Shown piece after piece: positions 5,050 through 41,202 of a stretch of 64,000 bases of DNA (its first letter is position 1; the number at the start of each line of letters is the position of its first letter). The DNA comes from a virus (Duplodnaviria > Heunggongvirae > Uroviricota > Caudoviricetes), in the IMG/VR virus record IMGVR_UViG_3300025782_000009; one strand, given 5' to 3'. A program made the position numbers and the translations under genes. The notes under the pieces were generated by a model. The model was not told where the DNA came from and searched no databases. It saw only the letters and a program-made list of their open reading frames with translations.

Positions 5050-5094
5050 TAACCCATTTTTCACGCCTGAGTCAGGCTTAAAGGAACTACTACT

Positions 5095-9912: not shown

Positions 9913-10083
9913 TCGTTTTCCTTAAAGAAATCTTCTAAAACTTTTGCCGCCTTTTCGTCCATTCTGTCTTGCCAGTATTTTTTAGCAATGCTAGCTTCCT
10001 CTTCGGTCACTGGAATCCATTTGCCGTCCGCATCCTGCTTATTCCACCAAGGTTTGCCATCTTTATGCCCCAGAAACCACATG
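9910..10083 (-). CDS. Hypothetical small protein (57 aa), below the track cutoff
   Basis: Hand-translated as MWFLGHKDGKPWWNKQDADGKWIPVTEEEASIAKKYWQDRMDEKAAKVLEDFFKENE. The ATG sits inside the conserved junction aaggataagaatcATGtgg. ATGA coupling to the next gene. Confidence 0.4.
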
Positions 10084-17935: not shown

Positions 17936-18095
17936 CACACAACAAGCCGGCATGGATCTGAGAGATTGGTTTGCAGGGCAAGTATTACCTAAGTTGATTG
18001 GTACTGCACCTATAAATTTAGCCGCACAGTCAGCTTATCGTTGGGCAGATGAAATGATGAAAGCGAGATCAAATGAAGATAACAAACAAGTTTAA
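17904..18095 (+). CDS. Hypothetical protein (63 aa)
   Basis: ORF overlapping its neighbours. Confidence 0.4.
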   Translation: MQMKAFPNPNNTQQAGMDLRDWFAGQVLPKLIGTAPINLAAQSAYRWADEMMKARSNEDNKQV

Positions 18096-18969
18096 TCTGC
18101 CAGAGACAATCCTAAACGTACTGGCTCGCCCTACCTATTCCAAAGGCAAGGCTAATATTTCGGCTACTGAATTGATCAATTCACCCCGTATCGTGCAGCT
18201 CAAAAGGAAGCACTGGGACGAGGTGGAGGAGGATGCAAGCTCTATGGTCTGGTCACTGTTTGGCTCTGCCGTTCACAATATCCTGGAGCACGGCAAGCAG
18301 GACAATCATATCGTTGAGGAACGAGTGCACATTACCCACGAGGGATGGCATATCTCCGGCGCAGTAGATCTTCAAGAGGTCTATGAGGACGGAATTGTTA
18401 TCAATGACTACAAGACCACTACCGCCTGGGCTGTACAAAACGACAAGCCGGAATGGGAAGAGCAGCTCAACATATACGCCTGGCTAATCCAGAAAGCTAA
18501 GAATAAACCCGTCAAGGGCTTGCGTATCGTAGCCATAGTGCGCGATTGGAGTCAAAGAGATGCCGTGAATAGGGAAGGCTATCCGCAAGCGCCTATCGTG
18601 ATCCTAGACCAGCAGCTATGGCCTTTTGAGAAGGCTGAACTGTTCATTGAGGAAAGACTAAAGGCACACGGCGAAGCTTACTTTGAATCCGAGACAGACG
18701 GTCAGCTGCCAGAATGTTCACCAGACGATATGTGGGAGAAGCCAACAACCTATGCCGTGATCAAAGTCGGTGGCAAGAGAGCTAAGTCAGTCCATTCCAC
18801 AAAGAGGGACGCGGAAGCAGACTTGGATACAGCCGGCAAAGGATACGAGATCCAGGTCAGACCAGGAGAACGGACACGGTGCAGCAGCTACTGCCAGGTC
18901 AATCAATGGTGCAGCCAGTACCACAAATATTTACAAGAAAACGCAATCGTTGAAGAGGCAATTGAATGA
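18073..18969 (+). CDS. PD-(D/E)xK exonuclease, Cas4/RecB-like, with a C-terminal Cys cluster
   Basis: AVDLQEVYEDGIVINDYKTT carries the D..E.K catalytic core. The C-terminal cysteines are CSPDD ... CSSYCQVNQWC. It is paired with the downstream ERF annealing protein. Confidence 0.7.
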   Translation: MKITNKFNLPETILNVLARPTYSKGKANISATELINSPRIVQLKRKHWDEVEEDASSMVWSLFGSAVHNILEHGKQDNHIVEERVHITHEGWHISGAVDLQEVYEDGIVINDYKTTTAWAVQNDKPEWEEQLNIYAWLIQKAKNKPVKGLRIVAIVRDWSQRDAVNREGYPQAPIVILDQQLWPFEKAELFIEERLKAHGEAYFESETDGQLPECSPDDMWEKPTTYAVIKVGGKRAKSVHSTKRDAEADLDTAGKGYEIQVRPGERTRCSSYCQVNQWCSQYHKYLQENAIVEEAIE

Positions 18970-20162
18970 AAAAAGTAATTCACGAAGCCGATTCCAGACC
19001 CATAAAGATCTGGACGGATGACGTAGAAGAGGAGGCGCTGACCCAGCTTAAGAACCTGGCAAGGCTGCCCTTTATCAACCATCACGGCGTAGTCTGTATG
19101 CCTGATGTTCATGCGGGCAAAGGATCGACCGTGGGAACGGTTATAGCTACCGAGAAGGCGATTATTCCTGCTGCTGTAGGCGTTGACATTGGTTGCGGCA
19201 TGAACGCTGTTAGAACGTCTTTAAAGGCTTCTGACTTGCCTGAATCTTTAAAGGATGTCCGTACCCAGATTGAGCGTGATGTTCCGCTGGGCGCAGGTGG
19301 TCGGGTTCAAGCAGCAATTGATATTGATGATCGCATGAAGCGCTTGCCAAAAACATCATTTGATCTTTGCACAAGGCTAAATGAGATTATCGGTGACTAC
19401 TGGAAAAAGGCTGCCCCACAACTTGGGACGCTTGGATCAGGTAACCACTTCATTGAGCTTTGTATTGATGAGAACCAGGATGTATGGGTAATGCTTCATT
19501 CTGGATCTCGCGGAATAGGAAACATGATTGGCTCTTACTACATTGAAAAAGCCAAGAAAACAATGGAGAAGTTCTTTATCCATCTGCCTGATTCTGACCT
19601 AGCCTATTTGCCAGAGGATACCGATGACTTTAATGAATACATGGATGCCGTGAGTTGGGCGCAGAGCTATGCATTGGAGAACCGCAAGCTAATGATGGAG
19701 ATTGTTTTGGATGCGCTCAGAAGGCATATTTCAAAAGAATTCACGATTACCCAAGAGGCGATCAATTGCCACCATAACTATGTAGAGAAGGAGAATCACT
19801 TTGGAAGAAACCTCTGGGTTACTCGTAAAGGAGCTATTCGTGCGAGATCCGGAGACCTTGGAATTATTCCAGGTTCGATGGGTCAAAAATCATATATTGT
19901 CCGTGGCAAGGGTGAGTTGCAATCCTATTGTTCTTGTTCGCACGGGGCAGGACGCAGTATGTCCAGAGCTGAAGCTAAAAGGCGCTTCAGTATTGATGAC
20001 CTCATTAAACAAACCGAAGGAGTAGAGTGCCGTAAGGATGCGGCAGTGATAGATGAAATCCCAGCTAGTTATAAAAACATAGATCAGGTAATGGCTAACC
20101 AAACAGATCTAGTCGAAGTAGTTCACACCCTAAAACAAGTAATGTGCGTCAAAGGCGCTTAA
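18966..20162 (+). CDS. rtcB: RtcB-family RNA 3'-phosphate ligase
   Basis: Conserved metal-site motifs GSGNHF, HSGSRG, NCHHNY and CSHGAGR are present. The length (398 aa) matches bacterial RtcB. Confidence 0.9.
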   Translation: MKKVIHEADSRPIKIWTDDVEEEALTQLKNLARLPFINHHGVVCMPDVHAGKGSTVGTVIATEKAIIPAAVGVDIGCGMNAVRTSLKASDLPESLKDVRTQIERDVPLGAGGRVQAAIDIDDRMKRLPKTSFDLCTRLNEIIGDYWKKAAPQLGTLGSGNHFIELCIDENQDVWVMLHSGSRGIGNMIGSYYIEKAKKTMEKFFIHLPDSDLAYLPEDTDDFNEYMDAVSWAQSYALENRKLMMEIVLDALRRHISKEFTITQEAINCHHNYVEKENHFGRNLWVTRKGAIRARSGDLGIIPGSMGQKSYIVRGKGELQSYCSCSHGAGRSMSRAEAKRRFSIDDLIKQTEGVECRKDAAVIDEIPASYKNIDQVMANQTDLVEVVHTLKQVMCVKGA

Positions 20163-21085
20163 AGGAAACACAAATGAGTTTATTTTTTATTGCAATTTTT
20201 TTATTAGCCGCCCCAATTGGCATTGGCTATGGTTTGTATATTTTTTCTTTGGCAGACGTAAGGGCTAGGAACTCAATGAGAGACAAACAAGTTCCTGAAC
20301 CAACGTTTAAGCCAACACTGCCAGCCGTTACAGGATTAGTCCTAATGCTTCTGTACATTAGTCTTGAATCCTACGTTATTGTTCCTGCCGGTCATATCGG
20401 CATTCAGGTGACGTTTGGCACGGTCAACCAGGAAACACTGGGCGAAGGCTTGCACCTGGTCAATCCATTGTCTAGCGTACAGAACCTGGACGTTCGTTTG
20501 GTATCTGCCAAGCTTGCGGGATCGGCCGCTGGGACTAAAGATCTACAGCAAGTACACACCGATATCGTTGTGAACTACCGTATCTCTGGCGACCGAGCAG
20601 CCCATATCTACAAGGAGTTTGGTTTAGATCTTCAGGATAAAGTGGTCATGCCTTTTGTCAACGAATCGTTCAAAGCCATTACCGCGCACTACACCAGCGA
20701 GGAGTTGATTACTAAGCGGGACGAGGTATCCGCAGGAATTAAGCAGGAGCTGTCAGACAAGCTGGGAAAGTACAACATTATTGTGAGCGATATCTCTTTG
20801 GTGAATTTCGGTTTCTCTGCCGAATACCAAAAGGCTATCGAGGCAAAGGTAATAGCAACGCAAAGCAAACTCCAGGCGGAGCAAGACCTAGCCAGGATTG
20901 AGGTAGAGGCTAAGCAGACTATTGCCAAGGCAGAGGGTCATGCAAAGGCTATCCAGATTGAGACGGCTGCAATCAACTCACAGGGAGGACAGTCATACGT
21001 TCAACTCAAAGCCATTGAGAAATGGAACGGTACTTTGCCTAGCACCATTGCCGGGGGCGCGACACCGTTCGTGAATCTGAAATGA
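20144..21085 (+). CDS. SPFH/Band-7 (prohibitin, HflK/C-like) membrane protein. The likely start is the MSLFF... ATG at 20174
   Basis: N-terminal transmembrane segment FFIAIFLLAAPIGIGYGLYIF, then an SPFH domain (NYRISGDRAAHIYKEFG ... FGFSAEYQKAIEAKVIATQ ... coiled coil). Confidence 0.8.
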   Translation: MRQRRLKETQMSLFFIAIFLLAAPIGIGYGLYIFSLADVRARNSMRDKQVPEPTFKPTLPAVTGLVLMLLYISLESYVIVPAGHIGIQVTFGTVNQETLGEGLHLVNPLSSVQNLDVRLVSAKLAGSAAGTKDLQQVHTDIVVNYRISGDRAAHIYKEFGLDLQDKVVMPFVNESFKAITAHYTSEELITKRDEVSAGIKQELSDKLGKYNIIVSDISLVNFGFSAEYQKAIEAKVIATQSKLQAEQDLARIEVEAKQTIAKAEGHAKAIQIETAAINSQGGQSYVQLKAIEKWNGTLPSTIAGGATPFVNLK

Positions 21086-23674: not shown

Positions 23675-24049
23675 GTGCACTGGTATTTAAAGGCAAGATG
23701 TTCCGGTGCACCCATTGTGGTATCAAGTGGGCTTCTATCGAACCGGCAGAGGCTCACATCTGTGAAGAACGAAATGCAAAGCAAGAACAAGAAACCACCA
23801 ACCGCATCAGAGAAGAAACACATCCAGAGGGTAAAGGAGATGCCATGTATCATATGCGGCGCATCCTCACCGAGCGATTGCCACGAGATTAAACAGGGTC
23901 AGTGGTTTACTTCTATCCCGCTATGCCGGGATTGCCACATGGGCAGCCACAACGGCATACATGGTCGTAAAGCTATATGGAATGTAAAGCGCCTAGACGA
24001 ACTAGACGCATTAGCCCTCACTATCGAAAAGCTTATAACTGAGCCATAG
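23675..24049 (+). CDS. Small HNH-type endonuclease-like protein. The real start may be internal (about 23844); it overlaps the alternative ORF 23665..23892
   Basis: CIICGASSPSDCHEIKQGQWFTSIPLCRDCHMGSHNG has the pattern CxxCG ... DCHEI ... LCxxCH. Confidence 0.45.
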   Translation: MHWYLKARCSGAPIVVSSGLLSNRQRLTSVKNEMQSKNKKPPTASEKKHIQRVKEMPCIICGASSPSDCHEIKQGQWFTSIPLCRDCHMGSHNGIHGRKAIWNVKRLDELDALALTIEKLITEP

Positions 24050-27000
24050 CACGAAGCTTCTTAATATTTATATTCTTTAAGATCAGCTCTTCTTGTTTGT
24101 GTAGATTCTCAATCTGCTTTTCTTTCTTGTCCGGATCCATGTTCGGCTTGTTGCTGATAATGGCTATAGCGTTTTGGATGTTAGATAGATTCTTAGCTAT
24201 CTTATCTATATCGCTATGCATACCAACCCGCATCTGGTGCTCTTTTGACTTCATGTAATCAGCCGCCTCGCTTGGGGTGCGCTTCTTAATATCATTGAAC
24301 GTAGCAGATGCTTTGTCTACTTCATCCTTCAGAATATAGAAGTCACGTTTCAAGCCGGTCTGGTTTTCCTTGGATATAAATCCACTAGATCCTGGGACAG
24401 AGGCAAGCACATCATGCCAGCCAATCGTAGGTCTTTCTACATTTGGATCTGTGTGCAGGATTGGATTGGTCAGCATAAGCGTTAGACCGCCAACAGAACC
24501 AAACATACCGCGGATGATATGGTCAGCGTTGATAGGCGCAATCAACCCGGTCTTACCAAGTACCTTACCAAGCTCAGATGTTGAGTCATTGAACTGCCTG
24601 GATACATCCTCCTTCAGCATGAACGGATTGATCAGGTTGCGGTTCTGGAAAAAGTCATAGTTCAGTGCAACTTCAACTGCTGGCTTGATAGCCTGGGGAA
24701 CAGGAGTAGGAGCCATCAAAGATGAAGTCAAAGCTGATGCCATTGAATCTCTAAACTTACGCCCGTCTTCTGTAGCGTTGTTGGTCATCAATAAATACAG
24801 GTGCTCTGTAATGATCTTTGGAATGGTAAAGACATCGTTCCTGAGTGGAATGCTGAGACCGCCAGATCCAGGGATCATTAGCAGTCTATCCCGTACAGTC
24901 GTTGGCTTCTTTAGGTAGTCATCATCGTCACCGTTCATCATTGCGTACAGCAAAGATAAAGCCATAACAGATCCGGTAGTCATAGCAAGGGTTTGTAATC
25001 CTGCCTTCCTCTCGGTCGGGGATATGCCCTCGCCGGTAATGGTTTTGAATGCTACGTTTTGAACAGCAAGGTAGGCATTGAAGAACGGTATAACTTGGCT
25101 AACTACGCGCAGGGTGGTAGATGTACCCCTCCTACGCACGTTAAACACCTCAAAGGCTTTCTCAATAGCCTCACCGCGGGTCAGTCCTGCCGATACAGAT
25201 GCCTCGTATACAGCTTGTCTAACAGCGTTATCTGATGCCATAGAGATATGCTTGAGCATACCTTTGACCTTGCCCCATCCGCCTGGTGGTGGTTTAACGC
25301 CGGCATAAACCTCAGCATCTCTACGCGCCAGATCAGATGTAAAGTCTGTATATCCTACAGCTCTGTACTTCTTAAGCTCCTCATGGGTTGTACTGGTACG
25401 TCTAAGCGTCTTAACAAACTCCTTGGCTGCAAGCGCAGGGATTCTCAGGGCGTACTGTGGAGACAAGCCGGACGTAAAGATAGCGGAGAACGCATCTTGT
25501 GGTACTTGGCTGACCGCAAAGAGCGGGTTCATTACAACAGATTCTCTAAGGATGTTTGCAAACTTGGAGAAGAACTTAACAGTAGGAACAGATACCGCCT
25601 GGATACCGGCAAAGGCATCTACAAAGAGCGGATCCTTCATGTCGTAAAACTCTTCCTTACCATCTCTCCAAATGCGAACCACGTTAGCATTCTTAATGGG
25701 ATGAGGAATCTTCTTAGCTATACCAAGGCTTTCCAAGTCCTTGCTCATAGCTGTATCAATCATCGCCTTAGCCTGGGAGTTTCTGATGGAACGGTTATAT
25801 GAATACTCGATCCACTTCGCCATGTTGTCCACGATATTGGCAACTGGTCTTTCAGATCCGGTCATCTTGAACTCTCTGGCTTTAACCATCAAGCCGGATA
25901 GATAGTTCTTATCTCCGCCTTTAGCCTCTTCCTCCTCGAACTCGCGCTGGAACGGAACGTAGTCAATGTTTGACATCATCTGCTCTGCGTACTCTTCACT
26001 CCACAGACCAGACTCAACCAGAGCGTCCTTAGCGTTGTTTCTCATGCCCTGCCAGATATCCACAGTATCTTGCAGCTCAGGCATAGACTTAAAGAAATCA
26101 AGACCTGTAGCAATCTGCTCGTCCGATAGATGAATAAGCTTTGGCTTTTGCTTGGCAAGATTCTCAAACCTAGAGATAGCAGCCTTCACTTCTGCCCTCT
26201 GCGCCTTGGTATCAGGATCATTCCCGGTCAGGCTGTTCAGTAGTTCATTGAGAGCCTCGATCTCTTCAGGAGCGCTGGCAATAGATGCGTTGAAGTCTTT
26301 CAGCGACTGGGTACGTCTAGCCTCAAACGCCATGTGCGTAACAAGCTCTGCCTCCTGGTACGTCATGTTGTACTTATTGGCAAACTCACTAATTGATTTA
26401 ATAAGTTCTTTTAAGTTGTATCTATCCTTTACAACCTCCCACTTCTGAACATCATCATCGTATCCCAGCTTTCCATCAAGCAGTGCACCATTGGCAACAA
26501 TATCAGCACCAACAGCTTGGCTGGTACTGATATTAAGCCGGTTTCTAACCTTATCACTCATCTCGCCATCCGCTTGCATGATGCCGCGTTTGATGTTGTT
26601 ATTGAATGCAGAGTCACTGCTAAATATCCAGGTCTGTATCTTGTCAGAGAACTTGGTAGCAGCTTTTTTGGCATCTTCTATAGCCATGCCAGGATTGTCT
26701 ATAGCGTTATCCCAGTAGCTCTTAAGGTTCTCGTAGAAACTCTTTGGTTGCTCTTCTACTTCACGACCCATATCCCTTAATGAATCAAGTGCATCTCTGC
26801 CCGCGCCAGTGGCTTGACTTGGCTGGATTGGAGATTCCTCTGCGGTCATCTTTGGATTTGATTTCAGCCTTCCCGGAGGGGCTTGAGGAGTAGTTGGAAC
26901 ACCTAATGTGTACCCTTTCTTTTCCAGATCTTTAGCAATCTCTAGCGCTGGATTTTCAAACATATCAGTAGATATTCTGATTAATCTATCCAATGCTGTT

Positions 27001-30000
27001 TCGTATTCTGGAGATAAATTTAAAACCTTACGGACAAACTCCATCAATTTATCAAGAGCAGTCTTATTGCCAACTTTAATTCCAGCCAAATATTTCTGCA
27101 TTGCAGGATCGGTCAATCCTTGCGTAATAAACTCAGCATAGAAATCACCCTCTACACCTGTTGATTTTTTAAAGGCATAATTAATTGAGAATTCATCTCT
27201 AATATATTTGCCTTCTTTCTTGTCCTTTCTCCATTGTTTATGAACAAGCTTTCTTAAATCATCTAATTCTTTTACGAGAGGATTATCTGTGCCAAGGAAT
27301 TTAATTTCCGCCAAAGAAATAAGATGTATAAATTCATGCGCTAAGACTTCAAAAGTAGAACCCTTCTCGCCATTAATTTCCATTATGAAATTTATTTTCC
27401 CAAGACCTGAAGGACTAAATACTCTACCCAAAGATGAACGTTTTTTATTCATTACATATTTGGTAGAAAAAGTCATTGGTACGCCGCGGCGATCAAACTC
27501 TTGTACTTTGCGAAGAATGTGTTCAGCTATTCCTTTGTGATATGAGTCATGCGCTATATCAACTAAAATCTGCGCTGCCTCAACAATATTTTTACCATTT
27601 AACCTTTTAAGCAATTCTGCTTTGCTCAACTGAGGCTTTTGGAAAAAAGTATCTTTTGTTGGCGGCTCATCTGGAGGAGTAAATAAATCTTTCTCTCCTT
27701 CAAATGCCTTTTTAAACACCTCATCCAGCGAGCGTTTGGGAACTTCCCCGAACATATCTGTGTCTGTTCTGTTGTGCTCTTCAAGCGCGGCATTAGCTAA
27801 GTTATTTAATCCTTCGGTAATCTTCTTACCCGACCTGCCAGAGTCTGCAAACATTTGAAGAATTCTTTGGGTATAAGGATTAGTCCCTATATCCATTTGC
27901 TTAGCCATATCTTCAAGCGGTATATTTCTACGCCTTGCATTAACCGCTGCTTCTGCGGCTTGGGTTACATAAGGACGGATATCGTACTCTCCAGCGCCAT
28001 CAAGCTGCGCCATCTTAGGAGCAACGGTTCCAAGTGAATTTAATACAAGTCTTGACTCAGCATCCCTGGTTGGCCCATACAGATTAATTAACTGCTCATT
28101 GCCATATGCCTTCCAAAACACAGCATTCATCAAACGATCTTCTGCTTTCTTTGAAGGCTGACCAAACAAGTCCTTTAAATCAGGATGCTCTGATACCGGC
28201 ATCGCATTAACAAAGTCCCGCAATGAATCAATATGCGGATCACCGTTATCATAAAATTTCAAAGAATTAATATCTATTCGGTTGGCATCTTGTTTGGCTG
28301 AATCAATAGCTGACAAACCAGAGATACCAGATACGTTTGATATATCACCAATGTTAGGCGTAATAAAAGACTTAGGCATCACCCGCACCAACACGGGCTG
28401 CTTCATGTCCGCAATAGTCTTGGGATCAATGCCGTGGGCTGCATCGTTAACCAACTCTTCCTTGTACTTGCCAGCTGTTCCGCGCTGATAAGCCTCTTGT
28501 ATACCTGCTACACGACCATTACCCGCAACCGGGCGAATAGCAGAGACAGATAAATCCTGGTACTCAGCATTCTTTGTGCCATCATGGGAATGAGATGGTA
28601 GCAATTCATGTGCATCAACAACTGCATACCTAACTGGAATCTTTGTTCCGTCAGATGCTGTGGTCATCTCATAGTTTCCAAGCTGGTTTTCGTTTAGCTT
28701 CTCATCGGTCATAACCACTGGAGCGCCAGAACCAAAACTGCGAGATATGCTTAAATCGTTATATCTTGGATTAGCTGCAACACCTTGCATTTGCTGAATA
28801 GATGCATCTGTAGATCTGTCTCTATTTTGAAAGACCGTACTGGATGCGTCTGGCAACCCTTGGTGGTAATTCTCAAAGTGCTGAGACAAGTCTGGATTTG
28901 CACCTGGCGCAACATTTCCCGGTGGAGTAGTAGGAGGATTGACCGGAGGCGTGGCAGGTGGAGTCTCAGGAGCAGCTGGAGGAGCGGGCGGAGTAGTACC
29001 CGGCTTTTGTGCGGCTGCTGGCTTCTGAAGCAAACCCATACCACCGGCAGTACCAATAGCACCAATACCCGCCTGGGCAGCAGTGCGTCCAAGATTCTCT
29101 GTTAACTCTGCATTAGGATCTACCTGTTGCTGAGCTACGTTCTGAGCAAGCTGTCCACCAACTTCCTCAATCTCTTCACTGGGTAGCTCACCAAGGGCGA
29201 GACCTGCTGCATTACGCAACCTACCTGCTTTACCTGCTTTACCTGCCAATGCCTCAGCAAACCTGTGTCCGCCTGGTAGATTCTGAGCGCCAAGGGATAT
29301 AGCTGCACCTGCAACACCAGTAGCCCTAGCGTACTTCAATGCTCTTTCTTTAGCCTCGTCCTCTGGTACGCCATCAGCAATCATCTTGTCATAGGTTGCT
29401 TTGTATACCTGTGCACCTACGTCAGAGCCTTGCTGTAAAGCACCAGTACCGATAGCAGCCCGTGCGCCAGACTTAACGGCAGCAGCTTGAGCAGCTTCAG
29501 CAGCAGCCTTCTCGGCAGCAGTACCTACGGCTTTCCTAGCGGCAGCTCTAGATGCGGCAACAGCAGGAGATAGTTCAGGAGCAGCAATAGCAGCAATAAT
29601 AGCCGGCAATTGTTCAGGTAACTGCTGGGCAATAAAGTTAAGACCAAGACCAAATGGGTCTTTGATTGTCTCTAATGCTTCACGACCAAGGGCGCTGAGC
29701 TGTCCACTCTTTTCCGCTTCTTTGACCTTCTCTTCTTTGAGTTGTTCCCTAGCTTTTAAACCAGGAGACTTCATCTCTTCGCCGTACTGTTGCAGCTTAT
29801 TACCAATAGCCATTACGCCGGTATCGGAGAAATCTCCAGTAGCCAGACCATACATCTGCGGTACAAACTTAGCTGCACCACCAACGCCAGATACTAATCC
29901 AGCACCAATGTCCGTTGCAGCCTGACCAAACGTCCTGCTTGTATCAGGAGCTTTGGGTGGCGGCGGAGCGGGTAGATCAGAAATGTCTACTGGTCTAGGC

Positions 30001-30035
30001 TTGGTAGGATCCGGTAAATCGCTAATATCAATCAT
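24033..30035 (-). CDS. Giant virion-associated or ejection protein (2000 aa) with a zincin-like HExxH motif, Ala-rich and Pro-rich N-terminal segments
   Basis: A continuous 6-kb ORF at the end of the late operon. FEVLAHEFIHLISLAE contains HExxH. Features include an N-terminal DISDLP repeat, an Ala/Gly-rich helix region and a PPAPPAAPETPPATPPVNPPTTPP linker. Confidence 0.8.
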   Translation of the reverse strand: MIDISDLPDPTKPRPVDISDLPAPPPPKAPDTSRTFGQAATDIGAGLVSGVGGAAKFVPQMYGLATGDFSDTGVMAIGNKLQQYGEEMKSPGLKAREQLKEEKVKEAEKSGQLSALGREALETIKDPFGLGLNFIAQQLPEQLPAIIAAIAAPELSPAVAASRAAARKAVGTAAEKAAAEAAQAAAVKSGARAAIGTGALQQGSDVGAQVYKATYDKMIADGVPEDEAKERALKYARATGVAGAAISLGAQNLPGGHRFAEALAGKAGKAGRLRNAAGLALGELPSEEIEEVGGQLAQNVAQQQVDPNAELTENLGRTAAQAGIGAIGTAGGMGLLQKPAAAQKPGTTPPAPPAAPETPPATPPVNPPTTPPGNVAPGANPDLSQHFENYHQGLPDASSTVFQNRDRSTDASIQQMQGVAANPRYNDLSISRSFGSGAPVVMTDEKLNENQLGNYEMTTASDGTKIPVRYAVVDAHELLPSHSHDGTKNAEYQDLSVSAIRPVAGNGRVAGIQEAYQRGTAGKYKEELVNDAAHGIDPKTIADMKQPVLVRVMPKSFITPNIGDISNVSGISGLSAIDSAKQDANRIDINSLKFYDNGDPHIDSLRDFVNAMPVSEHPDLKDLFGQPSKKAEDRLMNAVFWKAYGNEQLINLYGPTRDAESRLVLNSLGTVAPKMAQLDGAGEYDIRPYVTQAAEAAVNARRRNIPLEDMAKQMDIGTNPYTQRILQMFADSGRSGKKITEGLNNLANAALEEHNRTDTDMFGEVPKRSLDEVFKKAFEGEKDLFTPPDEPPTKDTFFQKPQLSKAELLKRLNGKNIVEAAQILVDIAHDSYHKGIAEHILRKVQEFDRRGVPMTFSTKYVMNKKRSSLGRVFSPSGLGKINFIMEINGEKGSTFEVLAHEFIHLISLAEIKFLGTDNPLVKELDDLRKLVHKQWRKDKKEGKYIRDEFSINYAFKKSTGVEGDFYAEFITQGLTDPAMQKYLAGIKVGNKTALDKLMEFVRKVLNLSPEYETALDRLIRISTDMFENPALEIAKDLEKKGYTLGVPTTPQAPPGRLKSNPKMTAEESPIQPSQATGAGRDALDSLRDMGREVEEQPKSFYENLKSYWDNAIDNPGMAIEDAKKAATKFSDKIQTWIFSSDSAFNNNIKRGIMQADGEMSDKVRNRLNISTSQAVGADIVANGALLDGKLGYDDDVQKWEVVKDRYNLKELIKSISEFANKYNMTYQEAELVTHMAFEARRTQSLKDFNASIASAPEEIEALNELLNSLTGNDPDTKAQRAEVKAAISRFENLAKQKPKLIHLSDEQIATGLDFFKSMPELQDTVDIWQGMRNNAKDALVESGLWSEEYAEQMMSNIDYVPFQREFEEEEAKGGDKNYLSGLMVKAREFKMTGSERPVANIVDNMAKWIEYSYNRSIRNSQAKAMIDTAMSKDLESLGIAKKIPHPIKNANVVRIWRDGKEEFYDMKDPLFVDAFAGIQAVSVPTVKFFSKFANILRESVVMNPLFAVSQVPQDAFSAIFTSGLSPQYALRIPALAAKEFVKTLRRTSTTHEELKKYRAVGYTDFTSDLARRDAEVYAGVKPPPGGWGKVKGMLKHISMASDNAVRQAVYEASVSAGLTRGEAIEKAFEVFNVRRRGTSTTLRVVSQVIPFFNAYLAVQNVAFKTITGEGISPTERKAGLQTLAMTTGSVMALSLLYAMMNGDDDDYLKKPTTVRDRLLMIPGSGGLSIPLRNDVFTIPKIITEHLYLLMTNNATEDGRKFRDSMASALTSSLMAPTPVPQAIKPAVEVALNYDFFQNRNLINPFMLKEDVSRQFNDSTSELGKVLGKTGLIAPINADHIIRGMFGSVGGLTLMLTNPILHTDPNVERPTIGWHDVLASVPGSSGFISKENQTGLKRDFYILKDEVDKASATFNDIKKRTPSEAADYMKSKEHQMRVGMHSDIDKIAKNLSNIQNAIAIISNKPNMDPDKKEKQIENLHKQEELILKNINIKKLRAMAQL

Positions 30036-32608
30036 TATTTATAGCCTTGTTCAGCAAGATACTTCTGGGCAGCTGCTTGATCTCCTTTGAAATGCGTGTC
30101 TGCATAAGCCTTTAATTTAGCACCAGAAGGCATTGCAAGTTGAGCAGTACTTTCCTGACTTTCTCCAGCCATTTTACTTTCCAAATCTTTAAGCTTCTTA
30201 GTGTAATAGGTATAGTTTGCAGCTGCGGCTCTATACTCATCTGTATCAGTGTTGTAGGCATTAGCTTTCATAAAGTCCATAGCTTTATTGGCCATTTGCG
30301 TATAACCTTGAACACCAAGTTTTTCACCAAGTCCAGACTTAATGTTAAACGCAGCAGTTATTCTGTCTGCATATGACATACCTTTATACTTAGGATCGTT
30401 CTTAAGTTCTAAGGCAATATCATTAGCGGTAAGTTCTTTGCCCGCCAAAGTTGCATCCCTGTTCATCTTAGCAATAGCCATTTGCGTGCTAGCACCAAGC
30501 TGAGCTACCGCCATCGCATTCTTAGCCCGCATATCCTCAACATCTCTTGCTGTTTGAGCTTGACTATTTGTGTTGTAAATATTACCGCCAAGCGTAGCAG
30601 CCTTACCCTTATCAGCGTCAATGGCTGCCGTGATATTGTTAAGGTCTGTCATCTTCTCGCCTCTGGTCTTATCTTTAGCCTGGCGGATCATATCGTGATA
30701 TTTCTCTGCATGAGCCTGGTCAGATAAGCGCTGAGCAGTCACAAAGTTTTCTTCCTCTACACCACCGCCAGCCAATCCACCCCTGGCAATACCATTGAGC
30801 ACCTTGAGGAAATGCTCCATGCTCTTGTCTTGACGCTTGTATTCCTCGTCAAAGTGTTTAGCTTGCTCAGCCAATGAATCACCGGCTTCATCAGAAATAC
30901 CCAGAGCTTTCTTGCCTTCAGCAAGGTCTTGGATTCTTTTCTTAGCATCATCTACCTTTAGACCCGCCATCATGGCTTCATTTGCCAATCTTGTAACTTC
31001 ATTACTTGGGGGAACCAGTGCAGCTGCTATGCCAGTCTTCTTATCTTCTGGCGCGGCAGCAACAAGAGGAGCGGCTTCTTTAGCTTTCTCGCGTCTTCTT
31101 TCCTCGTGTCTTTTCTCTTCGTTCTTTGGTAAAGCTTCTGTGATTCCACCCGCAGTTGTAAAAGGGTTTGGCGCAGTAGTAGTTTGAGCAGCAGCGGGAG
31201 CGGCAGCAGGAGTTGGTATATTGCTTTGACCATTCATCAAAGCATTTCTATTGTTTAGCAATGACGCTGCATTTGCTTGAGCATCAGCAGATGGGGCGTT
31301 AGCAGCGGGAGCGGTTCTTGTTCCACCCAATCTTGGGTTGGTGGATGCAGGAGCATTGCTAAAGAAGTTTCCTATAGAATCATATATACCCTGGAATGGG
31401 GATGGAACATTGCCTCTTACATGAGGAGCTACGCCAGTATCTAACTGGGGTAGGCTCATTGGTGTATATGTATTAGCTGCTGCCGCCCTGGCATTAGCAA
31501 GCGTATTCCCAGGAACGATGCCTGGATCAGCAGTCACTGCATTTAACTGTGCATTGATTGCAGCAGGGTCAATGTTTGTCCCGGGAGGAGGACTAGCAGG
31601 AGCTTGCTGAACTACTGGCGCGGGTTGAGCTACCGGTGCAGGTTGAACTACTGGAGCTGTACTTCCCGCGGATGGAGCAGGTTGAGGAACCGCCCTAGCT
31701 CTAGCATCAGCAAGTGTATTGCCTGGAACAATACCTGGATCAGCAGTAATAGCGTTAAGTTGAGCATCTAAATCAGCAGGAGACAAAGTAACTTTGCTTC
31801 CGCTTTTTCCATCAAATCCAAGTATTCCACCTTCTTTAAAGTGGTACATATGCTCAGGCACATGATGCATCAGACCGCCATGAGCTGCGGCAATAGGCTG
31901 CTGCGAGCTGTATTGACCAAGCTGGCTAAGTGACAAGTCTTGGCTAATAGGCGCTGCTTCTGTCCCTGGTCTAGCTTGAGGGCGAGTAGCAAACACCATA
32001 GATGCATAGTTCTGCATAGGCATAGCCTGTCCGGGCTGGGGAGCTGCTACTCCCGTTTGCTGAGCTTGCTGAGGAACGGCAGCAACGCTATTTTGATTGA
32101 TAGCTTGCATGAGCTGAGCCAATTGCTGAGCACGTTGAACTTGCTGGTTTTGCTGAGCCTGTCCACCGCTTGCAAATGATGCAATACCGCCGGATGCTTT
32201 CTGAACCGGCTCTGGAGCACCTTGTGTTTGAGGGGCTACTTGAGTAGGCAATATACCCATAGCAGATCCAGGAGGCATTTGTTGTGGTTGAAGAGCTGCG
32301 ATACCTTGCGCCCCAGGTTTAGCTTGCGCTTGTGGGGGAACGGCTGGCATAGGAGGAGTAGGTGCAGTAGGAGCTTGTGTCATTCCTTGAGATAACTTTT
32401 GAGCAACGGTAGGCATGGGTTGCTGTTGCGCTGCTTGCTGTTGTTGGAGCTGTTTATCAGAGTTAGCCACCATCATAGCAGCTAGTTTCTTAGCAGGATC
32501 AGGGCTATTGATATCCTGCGCCGCTTGCTGCGGAGGAAGATTCTTCATCATATCAAATATTTTGCCCAGGCTAGGCATGGATATAGGTGTGTAGTTTTGC
32601 ATTGTCAT
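30035..32608 (-). CDS. Large Q/A/P-rich structural protein (857 aa) with an internal repeat and an HGG/His-rich patch
   Basis: The internal repeat LNAITADPGIVPGNTLADARA / LNAVTADPGIVPGNTLANARA occurs twice. AAHGGLMHHVPEHMYHFKEGGILGFDGKSGS is shared with the 794-aa neighbour. Confidence 0.7.
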   Translation of the reverse strand: MTMQNYTPISMPSLGKIFDMMKNLPPQQAAQDINSPDPAKKLAAMMVANSDKQLQQQQAAQQQPMPTVAQKLSQGMTQAPTAPTPPMPAVPPQAQAKPGAQGIAALQPQQMPPGSAMGILPTQVAPQTQGAPEPVQKASGGIASFASGGQAQQNQQVQRAQQLAQLMQAINQNSVAAVPQQAQQTGVAAPQPGQAMPMQNYASMVFATRPQARPGTEAAPISQDLSLSQLGQYSSQQPIAAAHGGLMHHVPEHMYHFKEGGILGFDGKSGSKVTLSPADLDAQLNAITADPGIVPGNTLADARARAVPQPAPSAGSTAPVVQPAPVAQPAPVVQQAPASPPPGTNIDPAAINAQLNAVTADPGIVPGNTLANARAAAANTYTPMSLPQLDTGVAPHVRGNVPSPFQGIYDSIGNFFSNAPASTNPRLGGTRTAPAANAPSADAQANAASLLNNRNALMNGQSNIPTPAAAPAAAQTTTAPNPFTTAGGITEALPKNEEKRHEERRREKAKEAAPLVAAAPEDKKTGIAAALVPPSNEVTRLANEAMMAGLKVDDAKKRIQDLAEGKKALGISDEAGDSLAEQAKHFDEEYKRQDKSMEHFLKVLNGIARGGLAGGGVEEENFVTAQRLSDQAHAEKYHDMIRQAKDKTRGEKMTDLNNITAAIDADKGKAATLGGNIYNTNSQAQTARDVEDMRAKNAMAVAQLGASTQMAIAKMNRDATLAGKELTANDIALELKNDPKYKGMSYADRITAAFNIKSGLGEKLGVQGYTQMANKAMDFMKANAYNTDTDEYRAAAANYTYYTKKLKDLESKMAGESQESTAQLAMPSGAKLKAYADTHFKGDQAAAQKYLAEQGYK

Positions 32609-34989
32609 GCTGGAACCTCTGCATATTTAATTGCTTTGTAGCCTGAATCCAAAGTAACCACAGCATTTGGATATATCTTTTCAACCTCTTGAGCCATGAG
32701 TCCAATGAATCTACCGTGCCCTGCGGTCGGCGTATCTTTAAACTCAGGCTTGTACTCAAACTCGTATACACCAAGACCATCAGGACGAACTGCAATCTTA
32801 ACGATATTCTCTTTTGCCCTGATATCAGATGTTGTCCCGCCACCTGTTCCATTCGTACCGGAAGATGTAGTTGTATTGCTTTGCGGAGTAAGCGAATTGT
32901 AAATTCCAGTCAAACCAGATAGATCGCCGGCAATAGTAGACAACGTGGATGTATTCGGCGTTGTAGCAGCAGCAGATATTGGTAGACCTGCAAGCATACT
33001 TGCCTGATCGGTGAGTAATGTCTGTGGGTACTGAACCTGTTGGTTGAACTGATTGAGCGATGCTGTGTCCGCAGCTTGTTGTAGTCCTTGCTGTGTTCCT
33101 CCGGCTGTTCCAAGAGCCTGATTCGCTGCCAAACCGTAGTTAGCTGCCGCCTCATTAGCCGCTTCTTGATTCTGCTGAGCTTGCAAGCTTTGTGTATTAG
33201 CAGTATTAAACTGATTCATTGCGTTGTTGTACGCAGTGTTGTATCCAGTACCAATCAAATTAGCTTGTTGCGCCAATAGATTATAGGCATCCTGTCCTTG
33301 TAGAACTGCTTGTCTTGTACCGCCATAAGCCCCAGCATTGGTTAGCTTGCTTAGATCTCCTTGCTCATTTTGTTTAGCTTGGAGTTGTAAAGCTTGGAGT
33401 TGTGGATTTAAAGATGCCTGTGTATATGGGTTCATATACTGAGCTGCCGCATTAGCATCAAACGTACCAGACTGGAACTGGGTAGGCGTTAACCCTGTAG
33501 CAGCTATTTGATTGGCATTGGCAAAGTATTGGTTCTGTAGATTGGATGGGCCAGCAGTTAATTGACCCGTATAAACCGGCATACCAGAGTTAACTAGAGC
33601 CTGTTCTTGCCCGAGCATATTAGTAACATAAGGAGCAAATGTGCTGTTTAATCCTTGTGTTGTAGATGTTCCAAGACCCGATACCGCCGTGGGCGATGTG
33701 GCAGTATTGGCTGTAACAGTACTTCCTGTCGTACCGTCAAAGCCTTTAACGCCTCCACCAGACGCATATCCTGCAATACCACCAGGCATAAAGTGATCTG
33801 GGTTAATTTCTTTGCCCTGCTTCTTAGTACCCGTGCGAGCCATGCGAATCTTATCCATCATCTGGTAAAGCTTCTTAGCACCGGCATCAGAGTTGCCATT
33901 ACCTAAATGGGAAACGACATCGGCAGGAATAACAAACTCACCGTGGCTTAGCTTGGCTGGTTGTACACCGTCAATAGATGTATCTAGCTTATCTGCCATT
34001 CCGTCTGTTGAGCCTTGGAGATAGCGACCGCCATGAGCCATTCCTGCTATTCCGCCTGGCATCATTCCACCGTGAGCTGCGTGAGTGGTGGGTAAGTTTT
34101 GTTGTTGAGCAGGATTTTGCTGAAGGTTAGCCACTTGAGCCTGTATGGCTGCAATCTGATCTGGCGTAGCAACTTGAGCTATTCCTGTTGGTTGGGGCGC
34201 TGTTACGGGCGTGATAGCCTGTACTGGTTTTCCTTGGTTAGCCCATGCAGTATTGACGTTAGCTGCGGGCAATGGCTGAGCAGCTACTGGAGCTTGGGTT
34301 AAGCTTTGAGCTTGTTGGTTTGCTGTGGCTCTTGCAGCAGATATCTGAGATGGATCAACATACTGACCTGGAGTAAAGAAAGCCTGTCCTTGACCTGCTT
34401 GCGCTAAAGGAACCTGTTGATTTACATAGCTTAGATTAGGTATGCCAGCTGAGTTACTTAAAGCTGTTTTTGTATTGTTTCCTCCCAACATAGCTGCAAT
34501 ACCAGCAGCAGTGGTTAAGTTTCCAGCATTCAAAATGGAGGCAGGAATATTAGTTGCTTTACTGATGGCGTTAAGCAATCCTTGTGCGCCAGACTGAGCG
34601 CCAGCGGAAGAATCTGAACTAGCGGGAGTAGAAGAACTGGAAGACGCAGAAGGAGTTACTGTAGGTGTAGAGTAATACTTGCCGTCAGCCGTAACCGGAG
34701 CACCACTTTTTGAATCAACAAAACCTGTTGGGCTTGAGTTGCTTGTGGTTACACCCTCTGGCAGCGCAGTACCTGTAACTTCTGTCGTGTAATTACCTTG
34801 GGAATCCAAATAATAATTAAGAACCGTACCGTTTGCCTGTATTTGCTGATCAATTAGATCGCCTTTGCCGCTTGAAGTTCCGGTAGAAGAGGCAATGCCC
34901 TGGGCTGGCATGGATGTTGTAGAAGTTCCATCATCATAATATGTGGTAACGCTACCGTCCGAATTTTGAATTTGATCGGTAATATCCAT
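32605..34989 (-). CDS. Fibre or spike protein (794 aa) with a C-terminal intramolecular-chaperone (peptidase S74-like) auto-processing domain
   Basis: The C-terminus SDIRAKENIVKI...GVYEFEYK...HGRFIGLMAQEVEKIYPNAV carries the S-D-x-R-x-K signature. The body is Q/S/T/A-rich and also has an HGGMMPGGIAGMAHGG patch. Confidence 0.75.
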   Translation of the reverse strand: MDITDQIQNSDGSVTTYYDDGTSTTSMPAQGIASSTGTSSGKGDLIDQQIQANGTVLNYYLDSQGNYTTEVTGTALPEGVTTSNSSPTGFVDSKSGAPVTADGKYYSTPTVTPSASSSSSTPASSDSSAGAQSGAQGLLNAISKATNIPASILNAGNLTTAAGIAAMLGGNNTKTALSNSAGIPNLSYVNQQVPLAQAGQGQAFFTPGQYVDPSQISAARATANQQAQSLTQAPVAAQPLPAANVNTAWANQGKPVQAITPVTAPQPTGIAQVATPDQIAAIQAQVANLQQNPAQQQNLPTTHAAHGGMMPGGIAGMAHGGRYLQGSTDGMADKLDTSIDGVQPAKLSHGEFVIPADVVSHLGNGNSDAGAKKLYQMMDKIRMARTGTKKQGKEINPDHFMPGGIAGYASGGGVKGFDGTTGSTVTANTATSPTAVSGLGTSTTQGLNSTFAPYVTNMLGQEQALVNSGMPVYTGQLTAGPSNLQNQYFANANQIAATGLTPTQFQSGTFDANAAAQYMNPYTQASLNPQLQALQLQAKQNEQGDLSKLTNAGAYGGTRQAVLQGQDAYNLLAQQANLIGTGYNTAYNNAMNQFNTANTQSLQAQQNQEAANEAAANYGLAANQALGTAGGTQQGLQQAADTASLNQFNQQVQYPQTLLTDQASMLAGLPISAAATTPNTSTLSTIAGDLSGLTGIYNSLTPQSNTTTSSGTNGTGGGTTSDIRAKENIVKIAVRPDGLGVYEFEYKPEFKDTPTAGHGRFIGLMAQEVEKIYPNAVVTLDSGYKAIKYAEVPA

Positions 34990-40144: not shown

Positions 40145-40741
40145 TTATGCAAAGACGGATAACGCATGATTGGTTTTAGCAATGCGATCTTCTAGTCCTA
40201 TTGTCCCACCATTGATCTTCTTGGTCAACGCTACCCAGTCCTTTGCCTGGGCTAAATTATTGCATCCATGCGTGTTCCAAAACCATCCCGCAGACAGCAT
40301 CGCATACATGGGCGTAGCTACCAGATCAGGCTTTCTTACCAGGTCTTCCTTAATAGCTTGACCACAATGCCAGTAGTTATCGTGCAGAGTAAGTTGAATA
40401 GCTCCTCTTCCCCGGTACATATAACCATCCCCGCTTGCCTCGTCCCGGTTGCCGCCTTTGTTGGCATATGCCCGGTTTGCAATTTTCTGGGGGTTATTTG
40501 CGTACTCGGCTGCGTTGGCTGAGTTGAAATGGGTAGGCCATAGGCGGATCAGTGTCTCTGCTTTATAGTGCAGATTCTCTTCCAGGGTTCTATAGTTTCC
40601 GCTCTCATGGGCAGTCTGGGCTATGAACGCAGCAGCTTCTTCAGGAGTAACAATACTAAATGCGGCAAAGGTCGTATTAAGAGGTTCTACCCATTCCGGG
40701 CCAATACCCATTGCATGAAGCTGCTGTGCTGTAACGTTCAT
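40145..40741 (-). CDS. Endolysin, glycoside hydrolase family 19 (chitinase-like lysozyme)
   Basis: AAFIAQTAHESGNY and YRGRGAIQLTLHDNY match the GH19 catalytic motifs. Confidence 0.85.
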   Translation of the reverse strand: MNVTAQQLHAMGIGPEWVEPLNTTFAAFSIVTPEEAAAFIAQTAHESGNYRTLEENLHYKAETLIRLWPTHFNSANAAEYANNPQKIANRAYANKGGNRDEASGDGYMYRGRGAIQLTLHDNYWHCGQAIKEDLVRKPDLVATPMYAMLSAGWFWNTHGCNNLAQAKDWVALTKKINGGTIGLEDRIAKTNHALSVFA

Positions 40742-41202
40742 TTCTTAGCCTTATTAAACGTATCTCTTACTTCGTTGTACTTGGTGATGCAAGCGTTGAG
40801 GTCTTTGATGGCTGAGTCCCCGTCTGTTGTGATGGAGACAATATCTTTAATAGCCTGTCTGTCAGATTCGCTTGCCTGACTTCCATCTCCAGCGGCGGTA
40901 TCTGTGGCGGGCTGTACGGCACAACTGGTCGGGAGGCGCAGCTCACCAGAGTCAATGCGAGAATTAATATTAGCCTGTTTAGATTTGATTTCATCTTTAG
41001 CCTTTCTAAGCTGGGAGTTTATCTGGTCAAACTTATCCGCTACTCTGTGTTCTTTTTCCAGGGATTCTGCGTTGAGTCTTGAAATCTCCACTGCGTCTTC
41101 GGTTGATTTCTGTTCATATCCTTGATGATGGCCATAGCCATATACACCAACAAGTGCACAAACAAAAGCAAGAATAATATAGGGATTAGGTAGTCCAAAC
41201 AT
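40738..41202 (-). CDS. i-spanin (Rz-like): N-terminal transmembrane segment plus a periplasmic coiled coil
   Basis: N-terminal transmembrane helix PYIILAFVCALVGVYGY, a charged helical region and GELRLPTSC. It sits immediately upstream of the endolysin with ATGA overlap and contains an embedded lipoprotein ORF. Confidence 0.65.
   Translation of the reverse strand: MFGLPNPYIILAFVCALVGVYGYGHHQGYEQKSTEDAVEISRLNAESLEKEHRVADKFDQINSQLRKAKDEIKSKQANINSRIDSGELRLPTSCAVQPATDTAAGDGSQASESDRQAIKDIVSITTDGDSAIKDLNACITKYNEVRDTFNKAKK
40767..40994 (-). CDS. o-spanin (Rz1-like) lipoprotein embedded in the +1 frame of the i-spanin gene
   Basis: Signal peptide with the lipobox LTLVSC, then a Pro-rich mature region PVVPYSPPQIPPLE. 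It lies entirely inside 40738..41202. Confidence 0.55.
   Translation of the reverse strand: MKSNLNRLILILALTLVSCASRPVVPYSPPQIPPLEMEVRQANLTDRLLKILSPSQQTGTQPSKTSTLASPSTTK

Follow-up and report, generated by a model that had tools for sequence, protein, structure and literature searches.

Short-tailed phages use giant ejected proteins to cross the cell envelope and to deliver enzymes along with their DNA, and few of these proteins (those of T7, N4, and the phiKMV-like phages) are understood. In T7 gp16 and phiKMV gp36, transglycosylase or lysozyme domains open the envelope. In N4 (Schitoviridae), the virion RNA polymerase (vRNAP), gp50, has an N-terminal domain that enters membranes, and ejection of the protein proceeds in beads-on-a-string fashion (PMC13434306). 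Phages of the phiKMV-like group carry gp16-class "tetrameric ejection proteins", represented by LUZ19 gp37 (9sfn_G) and PhiM1 TEP (8vb2_A). Phage-type polyvalent proteins are giant multidomain late products for which DdrB-ParB, zincin-like MPTase, and LPD38 domains are listed as typical or exclusive (Iyer, Burroughs, Anand, de Souza & Aravind 2017, J Bacteriol; PMC5512222). P1 DdrB, from the Dar anti-restriction operon, is a processed head-internal protein of 995 aa. Finally, LPD38 giants are encoded at operon ends in isolated podophages—PTXU04 gp25, phi24B gp47, phiARM81mr p69, and the Pag-Yong1 "large polyvalent protein"; of these, PTXU04 gp25 is essential (PMC11879866), and mass spectrometry shows phi24B gp47 to be abundant in virions, although it cannot be seen in maps (preprint 10.64898/2026.04.10.717836).

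Here, we describe a 2000-aa protein that a short-tailed (HTVC023P / Pag-Yong1-like) aquatic phage probably packages in its head and ejects, as an N4-vRNAP-like chassis bearing ParB cargo. It is a further member of the known class of phage polyvalent/ejection proteins and not a new kind of system; two common modules join three usually separate fields, namely polyvalent proteins, the N4 virion polymerase, and gp16-class ejectosome proteins.

Gene and operon setting

Within the window (the whole 64,000-nt stretch that was analysed), the gene and its immediate surroundings comprise the following features:

24033..30035, minus strand: whole open reading frame, ATG start, exactly 2000 codons plus stop; closes the late (virion) operon
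30035..32608, minus strand: upstream 857-aa gene, translationally coupled via TAATG; without family match
23989..24009, minus strand: terminator-like hairpin 24 nt past the stop codon of the 2000-aa gene; weak T tail, consensus match only

Read back from its ATG, the gene agrees with the sequence-only reading, which had described a single 6-kb frame of 2000 aa at the end of the late operon. Its start overlaps the stop of the 857-aa gene (TAATG), the product of which is a candidate partner virion or ejection protein. In a related contig, L002, a 41%-identical relative keeps the operon-end position and a large protein occupies the place matching the 857-aa gene. The late operon further holds a major head protein, an SU10-type adaptor, tail fibres, and lysis genes, such that the 2000-aa gene is encoded among late/virion genes; portal and terminase genes lie beyond the window. 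Early-type plus-strand genes (PD-(D/E)XK, RtcB, SPFH, ERF) run convergently toward the 2000-aa gene. A DNA search found no near-identical DNA among phage records.

The capsid is nearest to podophage capsids (PMC9599517) and differs in lineage from that of N4. The upstream neighbours (857, 794, 801, and 700 aa) showed no sequence similarity to N4 gp51/gp52 or to LUZ19 gp34-38, and their being unlike N4 gp51/gp52 and LUZ19 gp35/gp36 speaks against an ejection role for the 2000-aa protein. PHROG labels the 794-aa neighbour a "DNA ejection protein"; we did not take this up, as the C-terminus of that neighbour is a Peptidase_S74 intramolecular chaperone. Such chaperones are typical of fibres and spikes.

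Family and modular layout

We collected at least 120 full-length relatives of 1800-2800 aa. The protein is part of a large and apparently aquatic family that is uncultured and is related to HTVC023P-type pelagiphages; these pelagiphages have been reported among the most abundant marine phages. Five modules make it up—N, DdrB-type ParB, zincin-like, a variable stretch, and C—of which N and C are near-constant across 120 relatives, while the ParB, zincin, and ART domains between them vary. The "long regions without recognisable motifs" noted in the sequence-only reading are such by eye and in Pfam only; family profiles place nearly the whole protein in conserved modules. NCBIfam returned no matching family, and the whole protein as a single query against PDB sequences gave low-complexity noise only. 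The vocabulary of polyvalent proteins is nonetheless present in one polypeptide, with ddrB-ParB at 70 bits and LPD38 at 71 bits (curated cut-offs ~27) alongside a zincin-like HExxH domain; together with the late-operon position, this supports the earlier suggestion of a candidate polyvalent protein. Relatives add ART-PolyVal, as polyvalent proteins do.

N-terminal part

29931..30035, minus strand: leader, aa 1-35; Pro-rich, weakly conserved (DLPDPTKPRPVDISDLPAPPPPKAP), aligning in only about half of relatives
29016..29930, minus strand: N module, aa 36-340; helical, Ala/Gly-rich, conserved in ~107/120 relatives
29025..29396, minus strand: N4-like part of the N module, aa 214-337; homologous to residues 324-440 of the N4 gp50 N-terminal domain; translation confirmed
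28866..29015, minus strand: Pro-rich linker, aa 341-390 (PGTTPPAPPAAPETPPATPPVNPPTTPPGN)

The composition first described by eye is borne out by counts, with 30 and 20 Ala per 100 residues over aa 101-300 and 19 Pro within aa 301-400. Hydrophobicity along the protein peaks at aa 143-161, inside the N module, where the motifs GAxQQGxD and EExxGQLAQNxAQQQ come after this stretch. This module matched N4 gp50 by BLASTP (37% identity over 128 aa, E 2e-10), and its family HMM scored 32.4 bits against gp50 264-445, the region to which the homology is limited; 1000 local shuffles reached 4.7 bits at most. Searches with the N4 N-terminal region by Iyer et al. returned only N4-like proteins, and the homology that our sequence comparisons indicate is absent from that polyvalent-protein paper (PMC5512222).

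ParB/Srx module

27681..28865, minus strand: DdrB-type ParB/Srx module, aa 391-785; Pfam PF18763, E 2.2e-19

Two motifs of this module, QNRDR (403-407) and GNGR (505-508), are invariant. Homology to P1 DdrB is strong (family HMM against aa 25-428, E 4e-47), tblastn matched the DdrB proteins of P1, P7, and D6, and ParB precedes HExxH in both P1 DdrB and the 2000-aa protein. P1 DdrB, however, lacks the N and C chassis modules, and no counterpart of P1 Hdf, DarA, or DdrA was detected in the window by tblastn (best E 0.34). Polymerase families were absent from the 2000-aa protein in Pfam, NCBIfam, and PHROGs, and the ParB module fills that position; because no polymerase domain was found, we do not class the protein as a vRNAP.

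Zincin-like domain

26886..27680, minus strand: zincin-like domain, aa 786-1050; HExxH, gluzincin-type, lethal-factor-like fold
27324..27338, minus strand: HEFIH, aa 900-904; predicted two zinc-ligand His and catalytic Glu, on model helix 110-132
27132..27134, minus strand: E968; candidate third zinc ligand, model residue 183, beginning helix 182-190; codon confirmed

The HEFIH motif (FEVLAHEFIHLISLAE) picked out by the sequence-only reading sits in a genuine, strongly conserved zincin-like domain. By chance, a protein with this composition would hold HExxH only 0.026 times; weightier still, the motif is kept in 109/110 aligned relatives, the remaining row being gapped there. The downstream Glu, E968, is invariant in two alignments (110/110 and 29/29), and both LUZ19 gp37 and PhiM1 have a Glu at the aligned position. 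The domain model is confident and has a zincin fold, in which strands of a mixed sheet are followed by the long active-site helix bearing HExxH and a later Glu-bearing helix. Curated peptidase models (Pfam, NCBIfam; including MPTase-PolyVal) gave nothing above threshold, and sub-threshold Pfam matches in some relatives—SprT, WLM, M91, and eCIS core—are weak but all zincin families. Peptidase activity is a prediction.

Comparison with solved and annotated proteins placed the domain more closely. Its profile matched LUZ19 gp37 (PDB 9sfn_G, "internal virion protein") at E 7.6e-27, with gp37 retaining HEAVH and the Glu, and the PhiM1 internal core protein retains HEAAH; a full-text literature search for "9SFN" found no paper. 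For N4, the zincin HMM matched gp50 2210-2319 (C1) at E 1.6e-6, hhalign gave 89% over the motif helix of C1, and Foldseek matched N4-like vRNAPs at E 9e-6, in line with the lethal-factor-like zincin that Iyer et al. found for N4 (PMC5512222). Best matches in BFVD were N4-like vRNAPs, polyvalent proteins, a phiKMV-like internal core protein, and a crAss "RNAP-associated zincin". The domain differs from those of polyvalent proteins in matching neither the curated Pfam MPTase-PolyVal nor the MPTase of P1 DdrB; with the latter, hhalign aligned the motif alone (probability <1%), so the HExxH domain of P1 DdrB is not demonstrably of the same clade.

Variable stretch and C module

25986..26885, minus strand: aa 1051-1350; second Pro-rich linker, then variable helical stretch
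24036..25985, minus strand: C module, aa 1351-2000; ~650 aa, mainly helical, conserved in 115/120 relatives
24411..24926, minus strand: LPD38, aa 1704-1875, core of the C module; Pfam PF18857, E 1.4e-19, 71 bits against a cut-off of 27

The variable stretch is common to only ~22-40/120 relatives, others bearing inserts here, such as ART-PolyVal. LPD38 (large polyvalent protein associated domain 38) forms part of a C module that is shared over its whole ~650 aa with PTXU04 gp25 (HMM match to aa 1518-2191, 290 bits) and phiARM81mr p69 (aa 2543-3185, 363 bits), and that also matches PHROGs 9854 and 18222. Both of these podophage proteins lack the N module and the HExxH motif, so this class of proteins can do without the peptidase. 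Cargo differs among the giants as well, with a methyltransferase and ParB in p69 and LPD5/LPD1/MuF-C in gp47. An AF2 model of the C module (36 sequences) was of low confidence (pLDDT 61, pTM 0.32), and its profile against PDB sequences gave nothing meaningful and no solved ejectosome chain; we can only guess that this module has a role in packaging or ejection.

A probable head-packaged ejected protein

The arrangement resembles that of N4 gp50, in which a helical membrane-associating N domain, a linker, enzymatic cargo, an HExxH domain, and a large helical C-terminal part follow in the same order, and whose gene is likewise last in a row of virion/ejection genes. Two homologous parts are detectable, the N module (gp50 324-440) and the zincin (C1); by contrast, the cargo here is ParB/Srx rather than an RNA polymerase domain, the LPD38-bearing C module is without detectable similarity to N4 C2, and the neighbours are unlike gp51/gp52. 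With LUZ19 gp37 and PhiM1 TEP, the zincin-like domain is the sole shared part—N, ParB, middle, and C profiles found no match among LUZ19 gp34-38 and the PhiM1 internal proteins, and no hub domain was detected. Packaging and ejection are suggested by homology of modules and not of the whole protein, and delivery into the host with the DNA would follow from the modules shared with N4 vRNAP and LUZ19 gp37 and from the virion mass spectrometry of phi24B gp47.

We envisage a beads-on-a-string build, in which the N and C modules (C with LPD38) would be the chassis for capsid entry and tail exit, and the cargo between them—DdrB-type ParB/Srx, then a zincin-like metallopeptidase domain as in N4 C1 and the phiKMV-like gp16-class—would be exchangeable. 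The protein would be synthesised late, packaged mostly unfolded or loosely folded, and expelled before or along with the DNA, with the N module anchoring it in the inner membrane within a trans-envelope conduit. The ParB domain may then bind or act upon DNA at entry, and the zincin domain (H900, E901, H904, E968) may cut a polypeptide; any anti-defence role of the protein is putative. The zincin domain would most likely target the giant protein's own linkers and so set parts of it free, as suggested for polyvalent proteins. Since N4 vRNAP enters the virion unprocessed (PMC5512222), the presence of a zincin domain does not by itself imply autoprocessing in proteins of this kind.

Alternative explanations

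The alternative that survives best, though we think it unlikely, accepts packaging and ejection but has the zincin cut the host envelope (peptidoglycan peptide stems, Braun lipoprotein, or another periplasmic protein) so that the conduit can pass. The same domain occurs in LUZ19 gp37 and PhiM1 TEP, gp16-class proteins acting in the periplasm; Pfam found no lysozyme or transglycosylase domain of the giant protein's own; structural neighbours include PPEP-2 and PPEP-3, which cut cell-surface proteins; and the phi24B authors suggest such a role for the gp47 metallopeptidase (preprint 10.64898/2026.04.10.717836). Against this, Pfam gave no signal of a peptidoglycan-binding module in the 2000-aa protein. 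Lethal-factor-like zincins are protein endopeptidases and are not known to be muropeptidases, which also counts against an envelope target. The N4 HExxH domain, moreover, belongs to a C-terminal part that refolds in the cytoplasm (PMC13434306).

It is less probable still that the HExxH domain is no peptidase but either binds metal in a structural or packaging role or represents a different type of HExxH enzyme, for example an alpha-ketoglutarate-dependent oxygenase. Among relatives only 22-60% identical, H, E, H, and the distal E do not vary; these four residues correspond to the gluzincin ligand set, which implies selection for catalysis or, at the minimum, for binding of metal. Inactive lethal-factor-like modules, moreover, are those that have lost HExxH.

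We hold it to be very improbable that the protein stays unpackaged, as a late cytoplasmic factor (an assembly scaffold, or an anti-defence or takeover enzyme in the producing cell) at the end of the virion operon. P1 DdrB-type domains are indeed part of an anti-restriction system; but P1 DdrB is itself head-internal, the N module and zincin domain are common to proteins known inside virions, LPD38 relatives occur in virions, and the position in the virion operon is conserved. Tape-measure and tail-fibre-type readings, as for a long-tailed phage, are rejected by gene order and lineage as extremely improbable: although this is the largest gene of the virion operon and many tape-measure proteins are, like its product, helical and Ala/Gly-rich, it stands last with no baseplate or distal tail genes behind it, capsid and adaptor are nearest to podophages, family searches matched no tape-measure, tube, or sheath family, and the ParB, LPD38, and N4-NTD modules are foreign to tape-measure proteins.

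Wider implications

Returning to the probable head-packaged, ejected protein, its invariant zincin motif makes a clear test case for what such a domain is needed for, be it ejection, release of cargo, or neither of these. A bolder extension, which we offer tentatively and regard as doubtful, is that the N module plus zincin-like domain may be a general, hitherto unrecognised cargo-delivery chassis of short-tailed phages, carrying RNA polymerase in N4-like phages, ParB/Srx (sometimes with an ADP-ribosyltransferase) here, and other cargo elsewhere, with HExxH marking an active protease needed for ejection or for post-translocation cargo release. The PhiM1 paper labels the HExxH-bearing domain of its ejectosome protein "endolysin-like", and the domain so named in solved ejectosome proteins probably deserves a renewed look as a zincin.

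Position and composition of the giant gene

The minus-strand virion operon of the window ends with the giant gene, whose product can be divided into an N module, a ParB module, a zincin-like domain, a variable stretch and a C module:

24033-30035 (-), giant ORF, ATG-initiated, 2000 codons
27324-27338, HEFIH motif, aa 900-904
24009-23989, terminator-like hairpin 3' of the giant gene
aa ~36-340, N module
aa 341-390 and ~1040-1075, Pro-rich linkers
aa 391-785, ParB module
aa 786-1050, zincin-like domain
aa 1351-2000, C module

The sequence FEVLAHEFIHLISLAE is found in this protein, and the ORF, with its HEFIH motif, lies exactly where the sequence-only reading had placed it. The Ala-rich N-terminal part and Pro-rich linker that it described are apparent in the composition, with 30 and then 20 Ala per hundred residues over aa 101-300 and 19 Pro in aa 301-400. 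Its claim that the ORF closes the late operon also held: the start codon of the giant gene and the stop codon of the 857-aa gene upstream overlap as TAATG, the hairpin lies beyond the 3' end of the giant gene, and the plus-strand genes converging on it belong to early or recombination types (PD-(D/E)XK, RtcB, SPFH, ERF, and RHH). A predicted, convergent 124-aa ORF (23675-24049 (+)), for which a family search gave no match, overlaps the 3' end of the giant ORF by 17 nt (24033-24049).

The HExxH domain is conserved and zincin-like

Chance alone would give about 0.026 HExxH motifs in a protein of such composition, so that a single motif is by itself weak evidence; it is conservation that settles whether the motif is meaningful. 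A word-index search recovered at least 296 relatives, and the best 120 among them come from metagenomes, are ~1800-2800 aa long and in many cases lie on contigs of 55-66 kb. The aa 786-1050 segment was detected in 109 of these 120; HExxH is kept in 109 of 110 aligned rows, the remaining row having a gap, and E968—a Glu 64 residues past the second His—is present in all 110, with R1002 and A1014 likewise invariant. When 1.84 billion representatives were scanned exhaustively with HMMER for the domain, just 164 clusters reached E 1e-3 or better, and almost all were proteins of 1300-4600 aa; the domain is thus confined almost wholly to giant proteins, forming a lineage restricted to giant phage proteins.

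AlphaFold2, given an alignment of 29 sequences, modelled the domain with a pLDDT of 88.7 and a pTM of 0.86, as three strands leading to a long helix with HExxH and a later helix that begins at E968. Structural comparison of this model gave the following values:

Structural comparison of the zincin-like domain (structure, value)
Certhrax, 7.0
LF N-domain, 6.6 / 6.4
Pro-Pro endopeptidases PPEP-3 and PPEP-2, 6.4
Edema factor, 6.3
PhiM1 tetrameric ejection protein 8vb2_A, 5.8
LF catalytic domain, 5.8
MtfA, 5.3

Foldseek gave no match against the PDB; against viral predicted structures it matched N4-like virion RNA polymerases, "large polyvalent protein associated domain" proteins, a phiKMV-like internal core protein, and a crAss-like "RNAP-associated protein fused to zincin protease", with weaker viral-model matches to lethal factor, SprT, IrrE, and matrixin. 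No curated peptidase model matched the HExxH domain at threshold, and sub-threshold SprT, WLM, M91, and eCIS-core matches appeared in some relatives only. Taken with the predicted fold around the motif, the conservation indicates that this is a real zincin-like domain of gluzincin type, as had been supposed from HEFIH being typical of zincins.

The same domain occurs in ejectosome proteins of phiKMV-like phages

Among PDB sequences, the sole match of the zincin-domain profile was 9sfn_G, "Internal virion protein" (E 7.6e-27), which is LUZ19 gp37, a gp16-class "DNA ejectosome component" of phiKMV-like phages. This protein (L001, LUZ19 DNA, 5954-9967) has HEAVH at residue 423 and retains the distal Glu; the largest internal core protein of PhiM1 (L007, PhiM1 DNA, 4198-7989) has HEAAH at residue 385, also with the distal Glu, and the profile aligns to its residues 338-514. 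By assumption, we took PhiM1_43 (GenBank) and gp48 (the paper's numbering) as one protein. The paper labels Asp268-Asp528 of the PhiM1 TEP "endolysin/exotransglycosidase-like" and mentions neither zinc nor peptidase (PMC11440229), and HEAAH falls within this region. LUZ19 gp37, annotated as "internal virion protein with endolysin domain", matched zero families in a Pfam search. The "endolysin" domain of both proteins is probably a zincin, not a muramidase. That the giant protein carries the same domain as solved ejectosome proteins is new, though modest; it is the sole part in common, and apart from this one domain the giant protein is not of the gp16 class.

The N module is related to the N4 virion RNA polymerase

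Unexpectedly, sequence comparison identifies the N module as homologous to the N-terminal domain of the N4 virion RNA polymerase (vRNAP, gp50). The N-module profile scored 32.4 bits on gp50 264-445, while 1000 locally shuffled controls never exceeded 4.7 bits, and BLASTP of the module against gp50 gave E 2e-10 with 37% identity across 128 residues (giant protein GQLAQNVAQQQVDPNAEL, N4 GQLAQNIAQQQNIDKNQDL). The N4 domain, with predicted membrane-spanning helices at 224-278, goes into nanodiscs and is a proposed component of an inner-membrane complex, the remainder of the polymerase being packaged and ejected as beads on a string (PMC13434306). As in N4, the most hydrophobic stretch of the giant protein (aa 143-161) lies just upstream of the homologous region, and the C-terminal part C1 of gp50 is the counterpart of the zincin-like domain (hhalign 89% across the motif helix, HMM E 1.6e-6). 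Lacking a polymerase domain, the giant protein is not a vRNAP; the modest new point is that an N4-type N module exists outside N4-like phages.

Constant ends and an exchangeable middle

Architectures among the best 120 relatives were distributed as follows, the remaining proteins being truncated or partial:

Module architectures among the best 120 relatives
N-ParB-Zn-C, 88/120
N-Zn-C, 8/120
N-other-C, 9/120

Ten relatives are without the giant protein's zincin module, eight of them with another HExxH in the middle, and in some relatives ART-PolyVal stands between the zincin and C modules; together with the architecture counts, this indicates that N and C are constant and the middle is exchangeable. 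Two relatives (P0118 and P0120) have both the N and C chassis modules and HExxH nowhere in the protein, and the giant proteins of two isolated phages, PTXU04 gp25 and phiARM81mr p69, have the C module (290 and 363 bits) and neither the N module nor HExxH. The peptidase is thus common in the class yet not obligatory.

The ParB module matches Pfam ddrB-ParB, and the family profile aligns to P1 DdrB aa 25-428 (E 4e-47); QNRDR (403-407) and GNGR (505-508) are invariant. ParB precedes an HExxH domain in DdrB as in the giant protein, although the HExxH domain of DdrB is not detectably of the same clade. Searches of the window for Hdf, DarA, and DdrA of P1 found none.

Pfam LPD38 covers only aa 1704-1875 of the C module, the full ~650 residues of which are kept in 115 of the best 120 relatives. 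Its AF2 model is helical and of low confidence, and a solved-structure search found no relative. PTXU04 gp25 is essential by CRISPRi-ART (PMC11879866), and the essentiality there argues for a core ejection role; another LPD38 protein, phi24B gp47, is plentiful in virions by mass spectrometry and not visible in cryo-EM maps (preprint 10.64898/2026.04.10.717836).

Proposed role and class

Our observations cover the modules and what they are homologous to, the invariant motif, the similar fold, where the gene lies, and how cargo is swapped. Going beyond them, we propose that the giant protein would be synthesised late, packed into the head, and ejected together with the DNA. The N module might then anchor it in the inner membrane, the ParB domain might act on or bind DNA at entry, and the zincin domain might cleave a polypeptide. 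For polyvalent proteins, Iyer et al. proposed self-processing at Pro-rich linkers (PMC5512222). The main alternative is that the target is an envelope protein or peptidoglycan peptides instead of the giant protein itself; N4 vRNAP is packaged without processing (PMC5512222), and autoprocessing therefore cannot be assumed.

The sequence-only reading suggested an anti-defence purpose, which would be a candidate function. On the points tested, the giant protein is a phage-type polyvalent protein, for which the sequence-only reading had made it a candidate. It belongs to a known class, and its novelty lies in the N4-type N module and the ejectosome zincin.

Phage context

Besides several large virion proteins, the same strand encodes a major head protein, tail fibres and an SU10-type adaptor, as well as an endolysin and a spanin. 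In the capsid protein, identity is 72% with Planktothrix phage Pag-Yong1 and with Synechococcus phage MinM2, 64-65% with HTVC023P-type pelagiphages—a type assigned to Podoviridae (PMC9599517)—and 56% with Roseobacter CRP-901/902; among the encoded proteins, one of 700 aa is similar to the "stabilization" protein of LUZ24-like podophages. On the 63.9-kb contig that encodes a 41%-identical relative (L002), the giant gene is likewise last in the late operon, with an endolysin, a holin, and four large proteins before it; beyond it, SSB, ERF, and PD-(D/E)XK genes run convergently. The lysis genes of the window (endolysin and Rz-like spanin, 40145-41202 (-)) lie mid-operon, between the tail-fibre genes and the large-virion-protein block, an arrangement kept in L002 (GH108 endolysin and holin, 14-963).

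The upstream 857-aa (30035-32608 (-)) and 801-aa (34991-37396 (-)) proteins had no Pfam or PHROGs match and no similarity to N4 and LUZ19 ejection proteins; they are candidates for periplasmic-tunnel and outer-membrane partners of the giant protein. The best PHROG of the 794-aa protein (32605-34989 (-)) is "DNA ejection protein", a label that is probably misleading, given that the protein terminates in an intramolecular chaperone domain, Peptidase_S74, of a kind typically seen in tail fibres and spikes.

At 18073-21085 (+), genes for a PD-(D/E)XK nuclease, an RtcB RNA ligase (436 bits), and an SPFH/Band-7 protein stand in a row, yet no tRNA gene occurs in the window. RtcB carried by a phage suggests that host tRNAs are repaired after cleavage by an anticodon nuclease defence. 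The early/replication region (5585-9722 (-)) includes a helicase (8235-9722) and a DNA methyltransferase (6402-7868, PHROG 116) that may be a separate anti-restriction measure.
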